A stretch of 32,000 nt of DNA from Candidatus Electronema aureum (GTDB lineage Bacteria > Desulfobacterota > Desulfobulbia > Desulfobulbales > Desulfobulbaceae): positions 42,625 through 74,624 of the forward strand of contig NQJD01000009.1 of NCBI GenBank assembly GCA_004284765.1. Reading direction: 5' to 3'. This document shows, piece after piece, positions 2,448-31,878 of this stretch. The translations under genes were made by a program, and so were the position numbers. Under the pieces are notes generated by a model. The model made no database searches, was not told the DNA's origin, and saw only the letters and a list, made by a program, of their open reading frames with translations. The stretch's first letter is position 1. Each line of letters opens with the position of its first letter.

Positions 2448-2465
2448 GAAGTTAAATGATATTCA

Positions 2466-3767
2466 CTATGGCGTATTTGTGCATAACGGTATCTCCTTCA
2501 AAAGGAGATTGTGATTTTCTTCTACCTTGTAATCATAGTTAATTTTAAAAAAATCTATTTCTTTTTCTCTTTTTTCATACGAAGAAAGGATGTTGTAAAT
2601 ATTATTGGCGGTCGTGGAGTAGTTATGGCCGCTATATTCCATAGAGATTCTTTTGTAAATATTTTTTACCTTTTCAAATAGATGCCTTTTATCACTATCT
2701 TTCTCGTAACATTGAAGTAGATACATATTTAACCCAGCTATGCTGATCTGGGCTTCAGGGATAAAAGAACTTTTTGGAAACTTTTTTATAAAAGATTCGT
2801 AACGACCTATTTGTTCATCAACAGACTCTATGCTGCACTCATATTCGTATGGAATATGTAGATAAACATCAGCAAGAGCTTTCTGATCATCGCTTGCGTT
2901 TTTATTGTTAATAACTTTACGGTAAGGCTTTGCTACTTCTTCCATCTGTGCACACTCACCAGTACACTCTTGGTCAACTTTATCAACGGAAGTGGAATTG
3001 ATCGCTGATGTCGCTGACTGCGTCTTCTCGATTTTTTGTTTTTGATTTGCTGCGTCAGCAGTTACAACTTTGTTTTCTTTGGTTACAGAAATAGGATTAT
3101 TCTCCTTTTTAGGAATATAAGCATCCTGTTGAGTTGCAATTTGATTATCCTTCTTAACCTCAGCAGGATAGAACTTGTAATAGAAGAAAACAAAGGTTGC
3201 GACAATGACAAAAGATGTAATTACAATTTTATTTTTGCTGATAAAAATTTTATTGTCTTTATCGGTTTTATTTTCTATACGCTCAAAGTTTATATTTGCT
3301 TTAAAGTCAGATTCAGTTTTTTCTAAATTTTTTACTTTTTTAATTGAATCGCATTGAGTAATTCCTATCGCTTTGATTAAACGCTGATATCCATTCGCTT
3401 CATATAAATTCATCCAGTGCCAGCGACTAAGACGAGCTGGAACCTCGCAATCTTCAAGGCGGACAGGAATAATAAATATTTTTCCTTCCGGTTGTTCTTC
3501 AGCAGCATCAAGTGCAAAACAGATTTCTTTCTGAACGTATCCGCGTTTGTTGACTGAATTTCTGGAAAGACAAACAATCACTATAGCGGAAGAGCGAACA
3601 GCTTTACGAATTTCATACTGCCAGTCTTGCCCAGGCAAGAGGTCTTCTTCATCGAGCCAAGGATAATAACCATCCTTTTTTAACCGATGATATAGTTCCC
3701 TGACTTTTGCTTTGTCAGCCGAAGAATGGCAGAGAAATATGCGAGAAGAAGGTGATGTCATAGCCAA
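2466..3767 (-). CDS. TIR-domain protein with a single TM helix and a C-terminal TPR/BamD-YbgF-like domain
   Basis: 433 aa. Residues ~8-135 read as a TIR_2-type domain (IFLCHSSADKAKVRELYHRLKKDGYYPWLDEEDLLPGQDWQYEIRKAVRSSAIVIVCLSRNSVNKRGYVQKEICFAL...IIPVRLEDCEVP). The hydrophobic stretch IVITSFVIVATFVFFYYKFY is residues 181-200 (nt 3168-3227). The C-terminal ~230 aa include FIKKFPKSSFIPEAQISIAGLNMYL. The start is TTG at 3767, or ATG at 3761. Composition is strongly AT-rich. Confidence 0.75.
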   Translation of the reverse strand: MAMTSPSSRIFLCHSSADKAKVRELYHRLKKDGYYPWLDEEDLLPGQDWQYEIRKAVRSSAIVIVCLSRNSVNKRGYVQKEICFALDAAEEQPEGKIFIIPVRLEDCEVPARLSRWHWMNLYEANGYQRLIKAIGITQCDSIKKVKNLEKTESDFKANINFERIENKTDKDNKIFISKNKIVITSFVIVATFVFFYYKFYPAEVKKDNQIATQQDAYIPKKENNPISVTKENKVVTADAANQKQKIEKTQSATSAINSTSVDKVDQECTGECAQMEEVAKPYRKVINNKNASDDQKALADVYLHIPYEYECSIESVDEQIGRYESFIKKFPKSSFIPEAQISIAGLNMYLLQCYEKDSDKRHLFEKVKNIYKRISMEYSGHNYSTTANNIYNILSSYEKREKEIDFFKINYDYKVEENHNLLLKEIPLCTNTP

Positions 3768-3780
3768 TGCAATAAGTTAT

Positions 3781-4539
3781 TCAATTCAATGTAGTATTGA
3801 TATCCTCTGCCCTAATCGGACTCACATCCCCAGCCATCACCCGCTGTTCCCTACCGCAGCGGTCAATTATAACATATCGCCCGTCCTCGGCAAGTCCTGC
3901 GCCGACCGCTGGGATCACTTTGTCCTGACTGCAATATTCCAGCGGCCTGTTGAGCAAATAATCTCGCTGCCGCCATTCGGCCAGCAAGTCGGCCTTGTCC
4001 TCCTTGAGTCGCTCTGTCGCCGCAAGCAGATCCTCAACTAAACCCGGCAGCAGGGCGGCAGGATTGGCCGCTGCCGCGCCAGTCTCGGCCAAAGCGATGA
4101 TCCTGCCGCGCAGCTCCGGCGGAAAGCCCTGCGACAAGGCGGCAACGTTGATACCCACCCCGACCACCACAAATTCCGGCAGCCCAGCCCGCAGCGGCCC
4201 GCTTTCGGTGAGAATGCCGCCGAGCTTTTTGTCGGCAAAATACAGATCATTGGGCCATTTGAGCAGCGGCTGCACACTGACCGCAGCCATAAGGCCACGG
4301 CACAGCCCGACCCCGGCGGCCAAAGTCAACAGCGGGAAATCGACAAGCTCCAGCTCCGGGCGCAGAATCACGGAAAAATACAAACCGCCGGGCGGCGAGC
4401 AAAACTGCCGCCCGTTCTGCCCGCGTCCGCCGGTCTGTTGATCAGCGTGAACCACCGTACCCTGCGCCGCACCCTGCCGGGCTAAATCAAGGGCTATGCT
4501 GCTGGTCGAATCAACAACCGCAAAATGATGCAGTTGCAT
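3781..4539 (-). CDS. birA: biotin--[acetyl-CoA-carboxylase] ligase (class I, no N-terminal HTH)
   Basis: 252 aa. It carries the BirA signature QQTGGRGQNGRQFCSPPGGLYFS and KWPNDLYFADKKLGGIL. Its ATG shares one nt with the dnaN stop (TGATG). Confidence 0.9.
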   Translation of the reverse strand: MQLHHFAVVDSTSSIALDLARQGAAQGTVVHADQQTGGRGQNGRQFCSPPGGLYFSVILRPELELVDFPLLTLAAGVGLCRGLMAAVSVQPLLKWPNDLYFADKKLGGILTESGPLRAGLPEFVVVGVGINVAALSQGFPPELRGRIIALAETGAAAANPAALLPGLVEDLLAATERLKEDKADLLAEWRQRDYLLNRPLEYCSQDKVIPAVGAGLAEDGRYVIIDRCGREQRVMAGDVSPIRAEDINTTLN

Positions 4540-5687: not shown

Positions 5688-5697
5688 AATAAGTACT

Positions 5698-5890
5698 CCT
5701 TTTATATATAAAAGACTTGTTGATATTGGGGCTGTTGATTTGTTGATAACAGACGCAACAAGCTGGTATCAAACGAATTGCCCTGTTGATAACTTGGTAG
5801 TTCTTTGTTAATAAGATCAGCCTTGCCTTGGTTCCTAACAGGGTTGCTAACACGTTATCAACAAGTTGTTAACAAGTTATTAACAAGCAA
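5698..5890. promoter_or_regulatory. cluster of DnaA-box-like 9-mers plus AT-rich tract; candidate oriC or DnaA-controlled dnaN promoter
   Basis: TGTTGATAA (reverse complement TTATCAACA, 1 mismatch to TTATCCACA) occurs at 5741-5749 and 5784-5792, and TTATCAACA at 5855-5863. Weaker variants are at 5718-5726, 5733-5741 and 5877-5885. Three contiguous 11-mers follow: TTATCAACAAG, TTGTTAACAAG and TTATTAACAAG (5855-5887). The AT-rich tract ttttatatataaaag is at 5700-5714. Confidence 0.5.
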
Positions 5891-6029
5891 ACAGGCACGG
5901 GCCAGAGAAGAGGAAATATACCAAGTTGCCGCCTTGGTGACGATCTTTTATTTCAGCCAAGAGCCGCTGTCAGTTGCAATTTTGCCCAAATTGAGGTAAC
6001 TCTGCTTGAAATTCAACCGTCGGAACGCC

Positions 6030-7682
6030 ATGCTCCACCTGATCAGCATCAACTGCCGCTACTCCCACTCTTGCCTTGCTCAATTCTGCGTCCGCGCCGA
6101 ACTGGAACGCTACTTACCAGATGAGCAAGTTCTTCTCAGCCAATTCACCCTCAACGATCCGTATTACCCCACGCTGCTGCGGATTAGCGGCCAGCCAGCT
6201 AAGGCTTTGCTGTTCTCGGTCTATATCTGGAATCACGCTTACATCCGCCGCTTAGTTGTTGATATAGCCAAGCTACTGCCGGAGATGCCGATCATTCTTG
6301 GTGGCCCGCAGGCGCAGGCTTTAGCAGGGCTGCCGATGATACAATGCACCATTTTTACTGGAGAGATCGAAGGCGCAGGCGAAGAGTTTTTTCACGATCT
6401 TCAAGTCGGAACGTTGAAGCCTTTCTATCAGGCTGAACCCAGCCGCAGCTTTCCCTCTCCCTACCGGCAGAAGGATTTCCACACCCACCTAAAAAATCGG
6501 CAGATGTATTATGAGTCCTCGCGCGGCTGCCCTTTTACCTGTTCTTACTGCCTTTCTTCCATTTCCAAGGGCGTGCGTCATAAGCCGATAGAGCAGGTCA
6601 AAGAGGAGCTGGCGGGCCTGATTGCGGCTCATCCGATGATCATCAAGTTGGTTGACCGCACTTTTAACGACAGCCCGGAACGCGCCCTTGCCCTTTGGAA
6701 ATTTCTGCTCAAGGAAGCAGGCAACGTGCGCTTTCATTTTGAGATTGCACCTGATCGATTTACCGAGGAGCTGTTTGCGCTGCTGGCCCAAGTGCCTTGC
6801 GATCTCTTTCAGTTTGAGATTGGCATTCAAAGCTGTAACCAGCAAACCTTAGCGGCGGTTAAGCGGCGCATGAACGTGGAGCACGCTGAGGCGAATATCC
6901 GCCGCCTTGTCGCGTTCGACAGCATCCATATTCATGCTGATTTGATTCTCGGTCTACCCTTTGAGACAGCAGCGAGCTTTCTTGATTCCTTCAACCGGGT
7001 CTTCCGCTGCGCTCCCCATTACATTCAGCTCGGTCTGCTCAAAGTGCTGCCGGATACTGAGATGCAAGCGCGGGCCGCAGAATTTGGCTTGGTGTATTGC
7101 AGTGAGCCACCTTACGAGGTGCTGGCCACCCGTTGGTTAGAGCATGGGCAACTGAGTGAGCTGCACGAGTTCTGCGAATGTGTGGAGTCTTTCTACAACA
7201 GCCGCTTCTTCCGCTCCCTGTGGCCGTATCTCCTCCAGATCAACGAAGAGCCGAGCGGCTTTTTTCAGACGTTGCTTGGTTGCTGCCGTGCGCATAACTT
7301 CTTCCGCCTTGCCCACACCCAGGCCCTGATGAACAGCCTGTTAGTGGAGCTGGCCCAGCAGCGCGAAGACGGCCCGCTCTTGCTGGAGTTACTGCGCTAC
7401 GATTGGCTGCGCTGCGGTCAGCGTTTTTTGCCCGACAATTTGGCAAGCAGTTCGCAGTCGGAGCTACGCGACCGCCTCCGCCGTGAGCTGCCGCAAGAGA
7501 TAGAAGGGCTTTTCTCGACACGCTCACGGACAGAGTTTCTCAAGCATTCGGTTTTTTTGGAGCTATCCGAGCAAGCGATGGCACTACTGGTGTTAGGAAA
7601 GAGTCCGGCGGTGCTGGCGTTTCTGCCGGAGCAGAGCAGCGGAGTGATGAAGTTCAACCGGGCTGTGGTGGTGGAATGCTGA
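6030..7682 (+). CDS. B12-binding-domain radical SAM protein with DUF4080-type C-terminal region
   Basis: The N-terminus MLHLISINCRYSHSCLAQFC... is typical of the DUF4080 radical-SAM family. CxxxCxxC cluster motif SSRGCPFTCSYC. Long helical C-terminal extension. The track ORF begins at TTG 6006; ATG 6030 is preferred. Confidence 0.8.
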   Translation: MLHLISINCRYSHSCLAQFCVRAELERYLPDEQVLLSQFTLNDPYYPTLLRISGQPAKALLFSVYIWNHAYIRRLVVDIAKLLPEMPIILGGPQAQALAGLPMIQCTIFTGEIEGAGEEFFHDLQVGTLKPFYQAEPSRSFPSPYRQKDFHTHLKNRQMYYESSRGCPFTCSYCLSSISKGVRHKPIEQVKEELAGLIAAHPMIIKLVDRTFNDSPERALALWKFLLKEAGNVRFHFEIAPDRFTEELFALLAQVPCDLFQFEIGIQSCNQQTLAAVKRRMNVEHAEANIRRLVAFDSIHIHADLILGLPFETAASFLDSFNRVFRCAPHYIQLGLLKVLPDTEMQARAAEFGLVYCSEPPYEVLATRWLEHGQLSELHEFCECVESFYNSRFFRSLWPYLLQINEEPSGFFQTLLGCCRAHNFFRLAHTQALMNSLLVELAQQREDGPLLLELLRYDWLRCGQRFLPDNLASSSQSELRDRLRRELPQEIEGLFSTRSRTEFLKHSVFLELSEQAMALLVLGKSPAVLAFLPEQSSGVMKFNRAVVVEC

Positions 7683-11506: not shown

Positions 11507-12827
11507 CGGTCAAGCCTCCAAGCAGCAGCCTGCGGGCCGTGCCGATTAAATAAAGTGAGCCGGAAATGCAAATGAGGTCATCTTGAGTAGCCATTTTTTT
11601 TGCCTGCTCGATAGCCGCCTGAACTGAAGCGGCGCAGGTGGCCTTTGCTTGGAGCGTTTCCGGCAGTACCGCTGCCAGCTGCTCCGGGTGAGCAGCCCGT
11701 TCTGATTCTGCTGCCTTGGTTAAAATGAGAACATCGGCGAGCGGTGCAACTTCGCGCAACGTGGTCTGGATATCTTTATCTGCCATCGCACCCCAGACAA
11801 GCAGCAAGCGTTGGCGAGGAAAATCATTGATCAAGGCTGCTTTGAGTGCAGCCGCGCCTGCCGGGTTATGCGCTCCGTCTAAAAGAAATTGCTGCCCCTG
11901 AGCAGTGCGAAAATACTCCAATCTGCCCGGCCAGCGGGTCTGCGCAAGGCCGCTACGGACATGCTCCTCACTTATTGTCCAGCCTTGCCGTTGGAGCAAT
12001 TGAACAGCGGCTAAGGCCAGCGAACAATTGCTGATCTGGTGTCCGCCTTTCAGCGGCATGGGCAAATTGTGCAGCTCTTGTCTGTCCAACCCGCGATATT
12101 GCCAAACATTGCCGCTGCCACTCCCGTCAAAGTCCCGGCCAAAAAGTAAAAGCGGGGCTTGCCGCTCGGCGCAGGTTTGGTGGATAACTTCACCGGAGTC
12201 ATCATCCGCAACTGCCGAAACCACCGGCACGCCCTGTTTGATGATTCCAGCTTTCTCTGTTGCAATTTTAGCAAGTGTATCACCAAGATACTGCTCGTGA
12301 TCCATGCTCACATTCGTGATGATGGAAACCAGCGGCGTAACTACATTAGTGGCATCTAATCTGCCGCCCATGCCGACTTCCAGCACGGCAAAATCCACCT
12401 CCTGCTCGGCAAACCAGAGCAGAGCCAACGCGGTAGTGCATTCAAAATAGGTGATCTGACGACCGTCCAGCATCGCTTCAATCTTGCTGATCAGGCGGGC
12501 GAAATCCTTTTTACTGATGTACGTGTCGTCGATCTTGAAACGTTCGCGCACCGAGCTGAGATGCGGCGAGGTGTAGAAGCCGGTTTTGTAGCCAGCAGCA
12601 GTGAGCAGCGAATGCAGAGTCGCGCCCACAGAGCCTTTGCCGTTGGTACCTGCAATGTGGATACATTTCAGGCGGGTTTGCGGGTTGCCCAACCGTGCCA
12701 GAAATTGATTCATGGAATCCAGCCCCAGCTTAATTTTGAAAAGCTGGAGTTGATCGAGAAACTGCCAAGCCTGCTGGTAGTCGTCAACGGCGTTCATGTC
12801 ATGTCCTTGGTATTCTCTCGGAAGCAC
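11493..12827 (-). CDS. folC: bifunctional folylpolyglutamate synthase / dihydrofolate synthase
   Basis: 444 aa. P-loop HIAGTNGKGSVGA and Mur-ligase-family middle and C-terminal motifs (..EVGMGGRLDATNV.., ..LLDGAHNPAG..). An alternative start is ATG 12797 (MNAVDDY). Confidence 0.9.
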   Translation of the reverse strand: MLPREYQGHDMNAVDDYQQAWQFLDQLQLFKIKLGLDSMNQFLARLGNPQTRLKCIHIAGTNGKGSVGATLHSLLTAAGYKTGFYTSPHLSSVRERFKIDDTYISKKDFARLISKIEAMLDGRQITYFECTTALALLWFAEQEVDFAVLEVGMGGRLDATNVVTPLVSIITNVSMDHEQYLGDTLAKIATEKAGIIKQGVPVVSAVADDDSGEVIHQTCAERQAPLLLFGRDFDGSGSGNVWQYRGLDRQELHNLPMPLKGGHQISNCSLALAAVQLLQRQGWTISEEHVRSGLAQTRWPGRLEYFRTAQGQQFLLDGAHNPAGAAALKAALINDFPRQRLLLVWGAMADKDIQTTLREVAPLADVLILTKAAESERAAHPEQLAAVLPETLQAKATCAASVQAAIEQAKKMATQDDLICISGSLYLIGTARRLLLGGLTDEEE

Positions 12828-28743: not shown

Positions 28744-30236
28744 TTTCAGAACACGAAAATCTTCCTGTCCAAGCTGTTCTTGCCTTCTTTCCTGACGGTC
28801 TTTTAGACAAACTGGCCGCCGTTCGTCGCGAAGTAGGTGGCGAAATTTATCTTGTCGGCGGCGCGGTGCGCGATCTGCTCTTGGGCAAGTCGCCCGGCGA
28901 CCTTGATCTTTTAGTTGCCGGGCAGCCGAAACGCTGGTCCGAGCGACTGCGGCAGCTCACTGGCGGGGCCTGCGTCGAGCTGGGCCGCGAAGAGGAGACC
29001 TTCCGCATTGTCACGCCTCAGAATGTGGTGATTGATTTTTCCAGCTTCCGTTTAGGCGCGGTTTGCATCGAAGAAGACTTGAGCCGCCGCGATTTGACCG
29101 TCAACGCTCTGGCTGCGCCGCTGCATGATTTCCTGTATGACCAAAGCCTTGCCGCTCTGCCGGTGCTTGATCCAACTGGCGGTTTGAACGATCTGGAGCA
29201 AGGCCGCATTCGGGTGGTGGCGGAGCAGAGCCTCATTGATGATCCCTTGCGCTTGCTGCGGGTTTTCCGTTTTGCGGCCTCCCTTGGCTTTGCCATCGAG
29301 CCGGAGACATTGGAACACGTTCGTCAGCATTGCCCGTTGATCAACAAAGTGTCGAAAGAGCGCGTTGCCTATGAATTAGACGCAATCATGGCCACAAACA
29401 GGGCGCATTCCGCCTTTTTTGGTCTGCGCAACTGCGGTTTGCTTTGGGAAATTCTGCCGGAACTGCGGGCCGGAGTCGGTATGGCACAACCTGCCAGCCA
29501 TCATCTCGATGTCTTCGAGCATTGTTTAGAAACTCTGCGTCAGATGGAGTTGATATTAGCTGATTTGAATAGGCATTTTTCCGACCGCAGCCCTGTAATG
29601 GCAGCGTATTTGGCCGAAGTACCGAAACGGACAGTGCAGGTGAAATGGGCGGCTCTGCTTCATGATATCGGCAAGCCTGTTTGTTTTGGCATCAATGCGG
29701 AAAAAGACGGGCGAATCACGTTTCATAATCACGACTTGCGTGGAGCCAGTCTTTTCACTGGAATTTCTCGACAATTGCGCCGCTCAAAGGAAGACACCGA
29801 GGCAACGGCCCGGCTCATTGCGTGGCACATGCGGCCTTTTTTTCTTGCCAATGATCAGCGGCAAGATAAGCTGACTTTGAAAGCCTGTCTGCGTCTGATC
29901 AAGACAGTGGGTGAGCATCTGCCCGGCCTTTTTCTGCTGGCGATGGCTGATGCCTTGGCTGGCAAGGGTGAGGCCAGCCCGGAAGCGATTGAGCAGGAGG
30001 TTTCCGGTCTTTTTACCCTGTTATTTGACATTGAACGCAATCATGTCGCGCCAGTGCAGGCCGCGCCGCCGCTGATCACTGGAAACGATTTGATCACTGA
30101 GCTGAACCTTGTTCCCGGCCCGCTCTTCCGTATCATTTTGGACAAAATCGAAGAGGCGCAGATGGAACGCGCTGTCAGCAGCCGGGAAGAAGCATTGGCG
30201 TTGGCGAAGGCTGTTGCCGCGAAGCCTGCTTGCTGA
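28740..30236 (+). CDS. cca: CCA-adding tRNA nucleotidyltransferase / poly(A) polymerase family protein with HD domain
   Basis: 498 aa. Pol-beta NTase motif [24 protein letters not shown] and [12 protein letters not shown] domain ..HHLDVFEH.. and [12 protein letters not shown] overlap with can. Confidence 0.85.
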
Positions 30237-30349
30237 CTTTGGTGTGGAAAGATCATGCCGAACTCCGCTGGATTTGTTATGATGTCCCATTTCCTGAAAG
30301 CTGGGGGATGAGACAGGAGAGCAGAGAGATAATTTTGAAGGAGCGGAAA

Positions 30350-31207
30350 ATGGGAAGCGATGTAAAAAAAGAAATTAATTCCGCAGGGTATCCAAAATAC
30401 CACAGGCAACGTTTCATCATAACCTTGCTACAGTATTTGAACAGCAGTCTGAGTTGGGAAGAATTTCAAAAAATTCTCTTTTTATCTCAGCAGGAGACTG
30501 AAATTTTTTATTATGATTTTGTTTTATCCAGCAATGAATTTTATTCATTTCAGGCGGTCAGTGATATTGAGACATTGCATCGCTTAGGCTGGATAGACAT
30601 AAAAAACAACAAGATAGTATTGTTATATAAATTGCCATCTGAAAAAGGTCTGTCGCAGGCGGAGACGCAAAAACTTTTTCGTTTTACACGAGAAAAAGAA
30701 AAGAAATACTTTAAAGAGCAGCTTCTTTTTTCAAATCATGCAAAACCGTGCGAAGAAGATTTCCTTTGCGACGAATCTGTCCTATTTACAATAGGATATG
30801 AAGGGATTTCTTTTGAAGAATATATCAACCAGCTCTTGAGGAAAAATGTCCGCCTGCTTTGTGATGTCAGAATGAACCCAATCAGCAGAAAGTTTGGTTT
30901 CTCAAAAGGAATTTTGTCTGAAGTGTTGCCAAAATTTGGAATAAAGTATCTTCATATACCAGAATTAGGAATCATCTCCAGCAGCAGAAAAGAACTTCAT
31001 GCCGCATCTGATTATCAATACCTTTTTGAAAACTACAAAAAAGAATTAAAGAAGAAAAATAAATTTCTATCTATAGTTAGAGATGCTCTTGCAGAATACA
31101 AAAAAATAGCCCTGACATGTTTTGAACATCAGCCGTTATTTTGTCATCGTCACTGCATCAGTGATTATATCCAAAAAGAAAGAAATGTCACTGTGATCCA
31201 TTTATGA
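30350..31207 (+). CDS. DUF488-domain protein with an unrecognised ~145-aa N-terminal domain
   Basis: ATG 30350 with a GAAGGAG SD. The C-terminal half (from nt ~30778) reads LFTIGYEGISFEEYINQLLRKNVRLLCDVRMNPISRKFGFSKGILSEVLPKFGIKYLHIPELG...ALTCFEHQPLFCHRHCISDY, the DUF488 (YeaO-like) pattern. AT-rich. Confidence 0.7.
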   Translation: MGSDVKKEINSAGYPKYHRQRFIITLLQYLNSSLSWEEFQKILFLSQQETEIFYYDFVLSSNEFYSFQAVSDIETLHRLGWIDIKNNKIVLLYKLPSEKGLSQAETQKLFRFTREKEKKYFKEQLLFSNHAKPCEEDFLCDESVLFTIGYEGISFEEYINQLLRKNVRLLCDVRMNPISRKFGFSKGILSEVLPKFGIKYLHIPELGIISSSRKELHAASDYQYLFENYKKELKKKNKFLSIVRDALAEYKKIALTCFEHQPLFCHRHCISDYIQKERNVTVIHL

Positions 31208-31878
31208 AAAGAAAAGTTTTCATCACCGTCAAGACGTATCCAACGTTATCAAAAAAGTATGATGAGCTTGTCTGCACTGCGGGAATCTTGGATGACGGGA
31301 GCTGGGTGAGGATATATCCATTGCCATTCAGAAAACTTGATTACGAAAAAAGGTATAAAAAATATCAGTGGATAGAATTTGAACTTGAGAAAAATACCAG
31401 CGACATGCGGCCTGAAACGTACAGAGTCGTCAACTGCGCAACAATCAAGACAATTGATGATCCTATAGGAACAGAGAATTATTGGCGAAAACGAAAAGAA
31501 ATTATATTTCAGAGGAATAAAATATATAAAAATTTATCAGAGTTGATTGATTTGGCGCATGAGAATAAACTTTCTCTTGCGGTTTTCAAGCCAAAACACC
31601 TGATCTCTTTTCATGTTGAGGCAACTGAACGGGAATGGTCCTCGGATAAACTTGCTCTTTTACAGGGAAAGGTTCAGCAGCTTTCTTTTTTTCAGACGCA
31701 GGAAGAACTGCGGAAAGAATTTTCTGTTGTGGACAAGCTGCCATACAAGTTTTTTTATAAATTCAGCGATGAGGAAGGGAAAGAATCTCGACTGATGATC
31801 GAAGATTGGGAGATTGGCGCACTCTATTGGAATTGCCTCAAAAAAGAGAAAGGAAACGAGCAGGCCGCCCTTGGGTAA
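31204..31878 (+). CDS. hypothetical protein, translationally coupled to the DUF488 gene; probably 3'-truncated by an IS
   Basis: 224 aa. ATGA overlap with the upstream stop. MKRKVFITVKTYPTLSKKYDELVCTAGILDDGSWVRIYPLPFRKL... No family recognised. The stop TAA (31876-31878) lies inside the putative IS1 terminal repeat GGTAAT... Confidence 0.55.
   Translation: MKRKVFITVKTYPTLSKKYDELVCTAGILDDGSWVRIYPLPFRKLDYEKRYKKYQWIEFELEKNTSDMRPETYRVVNCATIKTIDDPIGTENYWRKRKEIIFQRNKIYKNLSELIDLAHENKLSLAVFKPKHLISFHVEATEREWSSDKLALLQGKVQQLSFFQTQEELRKEFSVVDKLPYKFFYKFSDEEGKESRLMIEDWEIGALYWNCLKKEKGNEQAALG

Follow-up and report, generated by a model that had tools for sequence, protein, structure and literature searches.

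A gene for a protein with a TIR domain, a single transmembrane (TM) helix, and a helical C-terminal module was identified at positions 2466..3761 (minus strand) of a 32,000-nt stretch of the cable bacterium Candidatus Electronema aureum (GenBank assembly GCA_004284765.1, contig NQJD01000009.1, positions 42,625 to 74,624; hereafter, the window). Its composition and the comparison of related loci indicate that it is an accessory gene of foreign origin, acquired before the split of E. aureum and E. nielsenii rather than recently, and the substitution pattern indicates that it is retained under purifying selection. The most economical model of the product is a single-pass inner-membrane protein with the TIR domain predicted inside and the C-terminal module outside. 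Here, we propose that the protein acts as an envelope-coupled TIR NADase, a one-gene defense or suicide module, a functional reading to which we give about an even chance.

The open reading frame (ORF) spans 2466..3767 on the minus strand and codes for 433 amino acids when counted from a TTG codon. The ATG at 3761 is more likely to be the start codon than the TTG at 3767, and the resulting 431-residue product is 100% identical to the deposited "TIR domain-containing protein" of Ca. Electronema aureum (P0001). Residues are numbered from this ATG, so that the Glu81 of a first-pass annotation, which was made from the sequence alone and counted from the TTG, becomes Glu79. The complete gene (2466..3761, stop codon at 2466-2468) encodes the TIR domain, a linker, the TM helix, a second linker, and the helical module, in this order. 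It is located in a same-strand string, dnaN-birA-TIR gene-yhdH-kdsD, whose members were confirmed with Pfam. The ORF placement of the first-pass annotation was reproduced, as was the spacing of 13 nt from the birA stop (3781) and of 18 nt to the yhdH start (2447).

The TIR domain comprises residues 6-135 (3357..3746, minus strand). As had been predicted, it is of the TIR_2 type: Pfam TIR_2 (PF13676) matched over positions 1-121 of its 122-position model with an E value of 5.9e-29, scoring 101.5 bits where the cutoff is 28, and Pfam TIR (PF01582) scored 39 bits against a gathering cutoff of 21.3. In the full-length AlphaFold 2 (AF2) model, this region forms a beta-alpha fold with a predicted local distance difference test (pLDDT) score of ~80-90, in which strands 7-11, 33-36, 60-65, and 95-99 are separated by helices. 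A Foldseek search with the TIR model returned SPARTA TIR-APAZ (root-mean-square deviation [rmsd] ~2.9 Å), Hydra TRR-2 (TM-score 0.82, rmsd 1.8 Å), and the TIR domains of MyD88, TIR-STING, and SARM1 with a probability of 1.0, and further matches were TLR1 and TLR10. The glutamate expected for NAD+-cleaving TIR domains is also present. Glu79, which lies in YVQKEICFAL and is encoded by the GAA codon at 3525..3527 (minus strand), aligns with the QKE of PdTIR (3H16) and, in the SPARTA TIR-APAZ chains, with E77, the catalytic residue there. By this alignment, it occupies the position of the conserved catalytic glutamate of NAD+-cleaving TIR domains (SARM1 E642/SPARTA E77) and is a candidate catalytic residue. 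It is invariant in 32 aligned members of the TIR clade, and also in the three Electronema orthologs. The best PADLOC profile matches were to TIR domains of defense systems, namely the SPARTA-type Aga_TIR (E value 1e-20), SAVED_TIR, which was limited to the TIR part (residues 2-112), and ThsB, whose profiles matched weakly (E values 1.6e-4 to 3.6e-3). The Aga_TIR match reached residue ~240, and its interpretation as an APAZ remnant was rejected, since the stretch beyond the TIR domain consists of a low-complexity linker and the TM segment and is modeled as disordered.

The TIR domain is followed by a Lys/Asn-rich linker, predicted to be cytoplasmic (residues 136-178; 3228..3356, minus strand; 21.5% GC). 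In the AF2 model, a helix (residues 124-150) extends into this linker, after which the pLDDT is low. The TM helix, IVITSFVIVATFVFFYY (residues 179-195; 3177..3227, minus strand), is the one hydrophobic segment of the protein, with a Kyte-Doolittle hydropathy of 1.97, and AF2 places a helix at residues 177-194. Its summed Hessa insertion free energy is -0.97, -2.13, and -2.58 kcal/mol in the three orthologs, whereas that of the next-best segment is +9.6 kcal/mol or worse, which bears out the single TM helix of the first-pass annotation. A low-complexity linker, probably periplasmic and disordered, follows (residues 196-254; 3000..3176, minus strand; pLDDT 30-36); except for a subthreshold SpoIIIAH-like hit, it matched no family. 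The protein has no signal peptide and its TIR domain begins at residue 6, so the N-terminus is expected to be inside. The flank on the N-terminal side of the helix carries a charge of +3 and that on the C-terminal side +1. Because of these features, the cytoplasmic location of NAD+, and the hallmarks of an exported domain in the C-terminal module, an N-in, C-out orientation is the most economical model.

The C-terminal part had been described as a ~230-residue domain. It is in fact composed of the low-complexity linker of ~55 residues and a folded module of ~175 residues (255-431; 2469..2999, minus strand), which is predicted to be periplasmic, all-alpha, and TPR-like. When modeled by AF2 with an alignment of its relatives, the module showed eight helices with a pLDDT of 93.2 and a predicted template modeling score of 0.87. 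When its profile was searched exhaustively against 1.84 billion representatives, 54 relatives emerged, of which 20 had E values below 1e-10. They define the signature KPY..VIN, DRKAIA.IY, PYEYEC, VD.QI..Y..FI..FP.S.[FY][VI]PEAL, LQC, and IPLC. The module matched no Pfam, NCBIfam, or PHROG family, and the PHROG matches of the protein lie in the TIR region alone, to families of unknown function. The CTGEC motif, which had been singled out earlier, is conserved in two orthologs alone and not even in the third Electronema ortholog, and it was therefore rejected as a functionally defining feature. The description of a BamD/YbgF-like TPR hairpin was a fair one: the module profile matched the solved chains of BamD, CpoB (YbgF), and YfiO with E values of 1.9e-4 to 8e-4, and Pfam YfiO gave subthreshold hits in eight of 25 module members at the FP.S.F[IV]PEA hairpin (best E value 4.6e-4). 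The protein of the window itself gave no hit to Pfam YfiO or TPR_6. The top Foldseek matches of the module, BamD, Tom20, MamA, and YbgF-TPR, were nonsignificant. We regard the module as a divergent TPR-type cassette of the periplasm, outside the BamD and CpoB families, with a predicted binding function.

The architectures of the relatives point to an extracytoplasmic location, as had been proposed for the C-terminal part. In every relative, the module is preceded by a TM segment or a signal-peptide-like N-terminus. Its partners across the membrane are Ser/Thr kinases, zinc ribbons, and DnaJ, and those on the same side are FGE-sulfatase, Lcl_C, SH3_3, BON, and Peptidase_M23. The module is a rare shuffling unit. 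Cys55 and Cys97 of the module (Cys309 and Cys351 of the protein) covary, with both cysteines in 16 sequences, the first alone in none, the second alone in three, and neither in nine (Fisher p 3e-5, uncorrected for phylogeny), a pattern that suggests a disulfide in an exported domain. A locus scan with a narrower module alignment yielded four metagenome loci. On one metagenome contig (Ga0268283_1001544), two tandem paralogs (L023 1410-4127 and 4177-7200) have near-identical DnaJ-TM halves and swapped extracytoplasmic C-terminal halves, one of which consists of the PYEYEC module and further domains and the other of a different extracytoplasmic domain. This pair suggests cassette-style diversification of periplasmic domains.

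The composition of the TIR gene is foreign to its surroundings, in agreement with the first-pass annotation, whose hand counts of G and C (17 of 60 at 3181-3240 and 40 of 60 at 4081-4140) were exact. The gene has a GC content of 35.6%, and of 31% at third codon positions (GC3), and the trough of the composition profile coincides with it. The corresponding GC and GC3 values of the flanking genes are 60% and 66% (birA), 61% and 67% (yhdH), and 57.5% and 65% (kdsD). To place the gene in its evolutionary context, 20 related loci recovered with dnaN as the anchor, among them those of E. nielsenii (L003) and UBA5173 (L004), were compared, together with the locus of the ortholog in a third Electronema species (L001). 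Full-length relatives were found in Electronema alone, in E. nielsenii F5 (82% identity; L003 10906-12183) and in the third species (77%; L001 4660-5952). E. nielsenii has the gene at the same site, in the order dnaN-birA-TIR-yhdH-kdsD. In UBA5173, whose dnaN is 90% identical, birA and yhdH are adjacent in an intact dnaN-birA-yhdH-kdsD string without an insert, as expected for the accessory status that had been suggested. The blastn homology between the window and UBA5173 ends at 3809 and picks up again at 2434, and the segment without a counterpart at the empty site, as delimited by blastn and the junctions, is 2448..3808, which includes the insertion and a remodeled birA tail. The C-terminal tail of BirA is wholly different after ...AGDVSPI in E. 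aureum (3781-3808), E. nielsenii (L003 10865-10895), and UBA5173 (L004 4690-4765); the insertion and later rearrangements therefore appear to have rewritten the 3' end of birA.

The ortholog of the third Electronema species is located in an unrelated neighborhood of PPDK-like, 97-residue, and DUF533 genes. Between the window and this locus, the homology spans 3763..2466 and is essentially confined to the ORF, with no more than 9 nt beyond it, and the copy has a GC content of 34% within flanks of 59-65%. In the other Electronema species (L005-L010), different genes directly follow dnaN-birA, for example, GAPDH-like in L006 and ClpA/ClpS-like in L007, as judged by eye. Because each of these species differs there, synteny within the genus seems to break at the origin-proximal position after birA. 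In E. nielsenii, the gap that separates the TIR gene from yhdH contains a RelE/ParE-like toxin-antitoxin pair that is absent from E. aureum, consisting of an 88-residue RelE/ParE-like ORF (L003 12306-12572) and an antitoxin-like ORF of ~64 residues (12577-12771) with a GC content of 42%. The pair was assigned by eye from motifs and has no PADLOC match. Its presence in E. nielsenii and absence from E. aureum suggest that the gap between birA and yhdH took up or lost cargo more than once. Among the hallmarks of a genomic islet, the TIR gene displays deviant composition, patchy presence, and an empty site, and neither mobility genes nor flanking direct or inverted repeats were found at it.

The synonymous divergence (dS) between E. 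aureum and E. nielsenii is 0.41 for the TIR gene, 0.45 for yhdH, and 0.46 for birA. The horizontal acquisition proposed earlier is thus consistent with the foreign composition and the empty site, and it is an old event rather than a recent one, since the gene is as diverged at synonymous sites as its flanks and is present at the same site in E. nielsenii. The ratio of nonsynonymous to synonymous divergence (dN/dS) is 0.11-0.16 for the TIR domain and 0.21-0.25 for the module, pointing to purifying selection. The ratio of 1.3 for the linker and TM region between E. aureum and E. nielsenii was left without interpretation, as very few changes underlie it (dS 0.04). In polarized substitutions, AT-to-GC changes were about as frequent as GC-to-AT changes in all three lineages, over a dS of 0.4-0.55 and with a host GC3 of ~65%. 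Because of this balance, the low GC content of the gene (~35%, GC3 ~30%) appears to be held steady rather than ameliorating. One possibility is that selection favors poor codons that keep a dangerous protein scarce.

As to expression, the first-pass annotation had stated that there is no room for a promoter or a terminator of the gene itself and had proposed read-through from the housekeeping genes. No terminator-like site was found at either junction of the TIR gene. The statement on the promoter overlooks the 3' end of birA, which contains a promoter-like site (TTGCCG-16-TATAAT, preceded by TG; 3893..3866, minus strand; consensus match only) at a distance of ~100 nt from the TIR start. No Shine-Dalgarno sequence precedes the gene in E. 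aureum or E. nielsenii. The tight spacing, together with the lack of a Shine-Dalgarno sequence and of terminator-like junction sites, fits co-transcription with the string. In the third species, the gene comes with a 173-nt leader and an AGGGGG Shine-Dalgarno sequence of its own, and also with a promoter-like site. Read-through is thus plausible but is one option among others, given the site inside birA and the upstream region of the third copy. A weaker promoter-like site, TGCACA-16-TATCAT (2456-2483, minus strand), falls within the 3' end of the TIR gene, immediately ahead of yhdH; after the insertion, it could have given yhdH-kdsD back a transcription start of their own.

The first-pass annotation had called the architecture a Toll-like-receptor (TLR) layout in a bacterium, unlike the soluble TIR defense proteins. 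The parts are as described, a TIR domain, a TM helix, and a predicted ectodomain, but the layout is not rare and its domain order is the reverse of that in TLRs. TIR domains with 55-73% identity to this one occur in more than 1,800 proteins, which come from many phyla and have very different partner domains. Among the best 120 matches, 84 have an N-terminal TIR domain, and in 30 of these 84 at least one TM or hydrophobic segment follows it. Because about one-third of the closest N-terminal-TIR relatives carry a TM segment, TIR-TM-ectodomain appears to be a recurrent design. In one relative, P0022, the TIR-linker-TM plan is the same and the outer domain is a different one. Another protein, P0004 (540 residues, from a metagenome), contains two TIR copies (residues 8-134 and 395-519) around a hydrophobic segment (~166) and an FGE-sulfatase domain, an arrangement whose predicted topology is hard to reconcile with both TIR copies being cytoplasmic. 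In the literature that could be searched, no paper on membrane-anchored bacterial TIR proteins or on TIR genes in cable bacteria was found. TIR proteins are reported to be enriched in multicellular bacteria (PMC7159879), and comparative genomics has described the TIR domain as a common effector in the conflict systems of such bacteria (PMC7159879, PMC10907252).

Based on these features, we propose the following mechanism for the envelope-coupled NADase. The periplasmic module would bind an envelope-side ligand or report a perturbation of the envelope, such as phage attack or damage, upon which the protein may cluster in the membrane. Clustering would bring the TIR domains into head-to-tail assemblies and switch on NAD+ hydrolase or cyclase activity, leading to NAD+ depletion or to an ADP-ribose-derived signal. 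SPARTA, TIR-SAVED, TIR-STING, and ThsB are switched on by sensor-driven oligomerization, and the structural neighbors of the TIR domain in Foldseek are oligomerizing SPARTA and TIR-SAVED/TIR-STING-type assemblies. No conserved neighbor of the TIR gene was found across three genomic contexts, and thus the gene is likely to be a one-gene unit, as the first-pass annotation had supposed. A more specific version, in which the protein is a functional bacterial analogue of TLRs, whose periplasmic ectodomain senses phage or envelope damage, clusters the helices, and turns on the TIR NADase so that a cell of the filament is sacrificed before the invader enters the cytoplasm, is rather unlikely in our estimation. 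Several observations weigh against a defense NADase. The catalytic glutamate is necessary but not sufficient, and some TIR domains are scaffolds alone. The TIR gene was not part of any complete PADLOC system, and it lies in a housekeeping string rather than in a recognizable defense island. No module relative was found on viral contigs with the narrower module alignment, and no phage-encoded relative of the module was found. As to the architecture, the TM and orientation calls come from hydropathy scales, the cysteine covariation test ignores phylogeny, and the similarity to BamD and CpoB is marginal (profile E values ~1e-4 to 1e-3, Foldseek E values 0.16 or worse).

The same architecture could instead serve a purpose other than defense, with the TIR domain as a regulated NAD+-linked switch or a scaffold in envelope-homeostasis or filament-integrity signaling and the periplasmic TPR module docked on an envelope complex; for example, damaged cells would be sacrificed within the multicellular cable filament. 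The closest solved relatives of the module, BamD and CpoB, are envelope-assembly proteins, its relatives carry the peptidoglycan- or envelope-associated SH3_3, M23, and BON domains, and its wiring to kinases, zinc ribbons, and DnaJ is typical of signaling. The location in a housekeeping string with kdsD, a lipopolysaccharide-precursor enzyme gene, and the reported enrichment of TIR proteins in multicellular bacteria (PMC7159879) are also in keeping with such a role. A core filament function, however, fits poorly with a gene that is missing at this locus in most Electronema species, shifts between loci, and keeps a foreign composition, and the nearest profile matches are defense TIR domains, so that we consider this explanation to be a minority prospect. 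A dispersed Thoeris-like system, in which the TIR domain generates a cyclic ADP-ribose-type nucleotide for an effector whose gene lies elsewhere in the genome, appears quite improbable. The weak matches to ThsB-type (E values 1.6e-4 to 3.6e-3) and Thoeris type III ThcB4 profiles would agree with it, signal-producing TIR domains carry the same glutamate, and an aromatic residue, Tyr75, lies four positions before Glu79, where both PdTIR and AbTir have Trp. Defense signal-effector pairs are almost always co-located, yet no ThsA, SLOG, SIR2, Macro, or caspase-like partner adjoins the gene in the three genomic contexts.

The topology itself may have been misread. If the hydrophobic segment did not span the membrane, or if the C-terminus were inside, the protein would be cytoplasmic or peripheral, and the TLR-like reading would be false. 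The modest charge bias (+3 against +1) and the low pLDDT of the helix in AF2 leave some room for this, but all orthologs conserve this strongly hydrophobic segment, and it is the sole one of its kind. In unrelated architectures, the module is also invariably preceded by a TM segment or a signal peptide, its covarying cysteines suggest a disulfide, and it is related to the periplasmic BamD and CpoB; a wrong topology is accordingly very improbable. The gene might also be a decaying or silent hitchhiker, a foreign ORF that persists solely through its wedged position in an essential operon, as the strongly non-host codon usage and, for E. aureum and E. nielsenii, the missing Shine-Dalgarno sequence would allow. 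That the frame is intact in three species, that dN/dS is 0.11-0.25 in both folded domains with a dS equal to that of the flanks, and that the copy of the third species stands alone with its own Shine-Dalgarno sequence and promoter-like site leave this idea with hardly any probability.

The window contains one other strongly AT-rich island at ~30.2-31.95 kb, with a minimum GC content of 0.34. It carries a candidate defense pair on the plus strand, PDC-M19A (DUF488-containing, 30230-31207; E value 1.3e-72) and PDC-M19B (31204-31878; E value 4.1e-91), which forms a complete two-gene PADLOC candidate system directly after a CCA-adding/poly(A) polymerase-type gene. The defense reading of the TIR gene gains some support from this island and from the toxin-antitoxin pair in the same gap of E. 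nielsenii. At 5688-6005, upstream of dnaN, there is an AT-rich intergenic region with palindromic DnaA-box-like repeats, TTATCAACA and TGTTGATAA, which is possibly oriC. dnaA is not adjacent to this region, and the next ORF (6006-7682, plus strand) encodes a 558-residue protein.

To our knowledge, all experimentally characterized bacterial TIR immune proteins sense cytoplasmic cues. A TIR domain wired across the membrane to a periplasmic module would, if true, follow a different sensing logic, in which detection at the envelope is coupled to execution by NAD+ chemistry, and among prokaryotic proteins it would come closest to the receptor-TIR arrangement of animal innate immunity. The TM-bearing third of the closest N-terminal-TIR relatives could then represent a large class of TIR immune receptors that signal from the outside in and whose ectodomains are interchangeable. 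As the protein is not a one-off, one tractable representative could open a sizable unstudied class of TM-bearing TIR proteins. For cable bacteria, the locus would be a case of an accessory conflict-type gene added beside the replication-origin gene string, and it suggests that the AT-rich islets of this genome carry defense-like cargo.

Compared with known systems, the protein is best placed as a member of the TIR superfamily outside Thoeris, SPARTA, CBASS, and TLRs, because the defining features of each were not found. SPARTA TIR-APAZ is the best sequence and structure match for the TIR domain (PADLOC E value 1e-20, phmmer against the PDB ~1e-3, Foldseek rmsd ~2.9 Å), with Glu79 at the position of E77, and the activation logic, with an inactive TIR monomer that becomes active upon clustering, is likely to be shared. 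Unlike SPARTA, the protein has no APAZ domain and no Argonaute (pAgo) gene nearby, and the putative sensor is a periplasmic TPR-like module rather than a cytoplasmic nucleic-acid sensor. Thoeris ThsB, TIR-SAVED, and TIR-STING likewise combine a TIR domain bearing the conserved glutamate with a fused or partnered sensor, and their profile matches are weak to moderate. The TIR proteins of Thoeris, CBASS, and Pycsar, however, are soluble, respond to cytoplasmic cues, and are encoded in multi-gene operons with ThsA or a CD-NTase, whereas the protein described here has a TM helix, a probably extracytoplasmic module, and no conserved neighbor. No adjacent ThsA effector (SIR2 or Macro/TM with SLOG) was found in the neighborhoods of E. 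aureum, E. nielsenii, and the third species, and no SAVED, STING, cNMP-binding, or cyclase Pfam domain, as expected for CBASS or Pycsar, was found in the protein or its neighbors.

The module resembles BamD (YfiO) and CpoB (YbgF) in its profile and its predicted periplasmic location. Its scores are below the family thresholds, the TM-scores are 0.3-0.45, and it has its own signature (PYEYEC, LQC, and IPLC) and covarying cysteines; it appears to be a shuffled cassette behind TM anchors and not a lipoprotein of the BAM or Tol-Pal machinery. With the animal Toll-like and IL-1 receptors, the protein shares the predicted single-pass arrangement of a solenoid-type ectodomain outside and a TIR domain inside, and the TIR fold matches those of TRR-2, TLR1, TLR10, and MyD88. 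In contrast to TLRs, the TIR domain is N-terminal, giving a type II-like topology, and the ectodomain is all-alpha and TPR-like, not composed of leucine-rich repeats or immunoglobulin domains. The TIR domains of animal receptors are scaffolds, whereas bacterial TIR domains with this glutamate are usually enzymes. Nothing indicates that the TLR-like architecture as a whole shares a common ancestor with that of the animal receptors. The closest kin of the TIR domain, at 55-73% identity, is the bacterial TIR_2 clade with variable partners (FGE-sulfatase, CarboxypepD_reg, Clp_N, kinase, and others), noted in PMC7159879 and PMC10907252, and the Electronema protein differs from this clade in pairing the TIR domain with this periplasmic module, a combination that was found in Electronema only.

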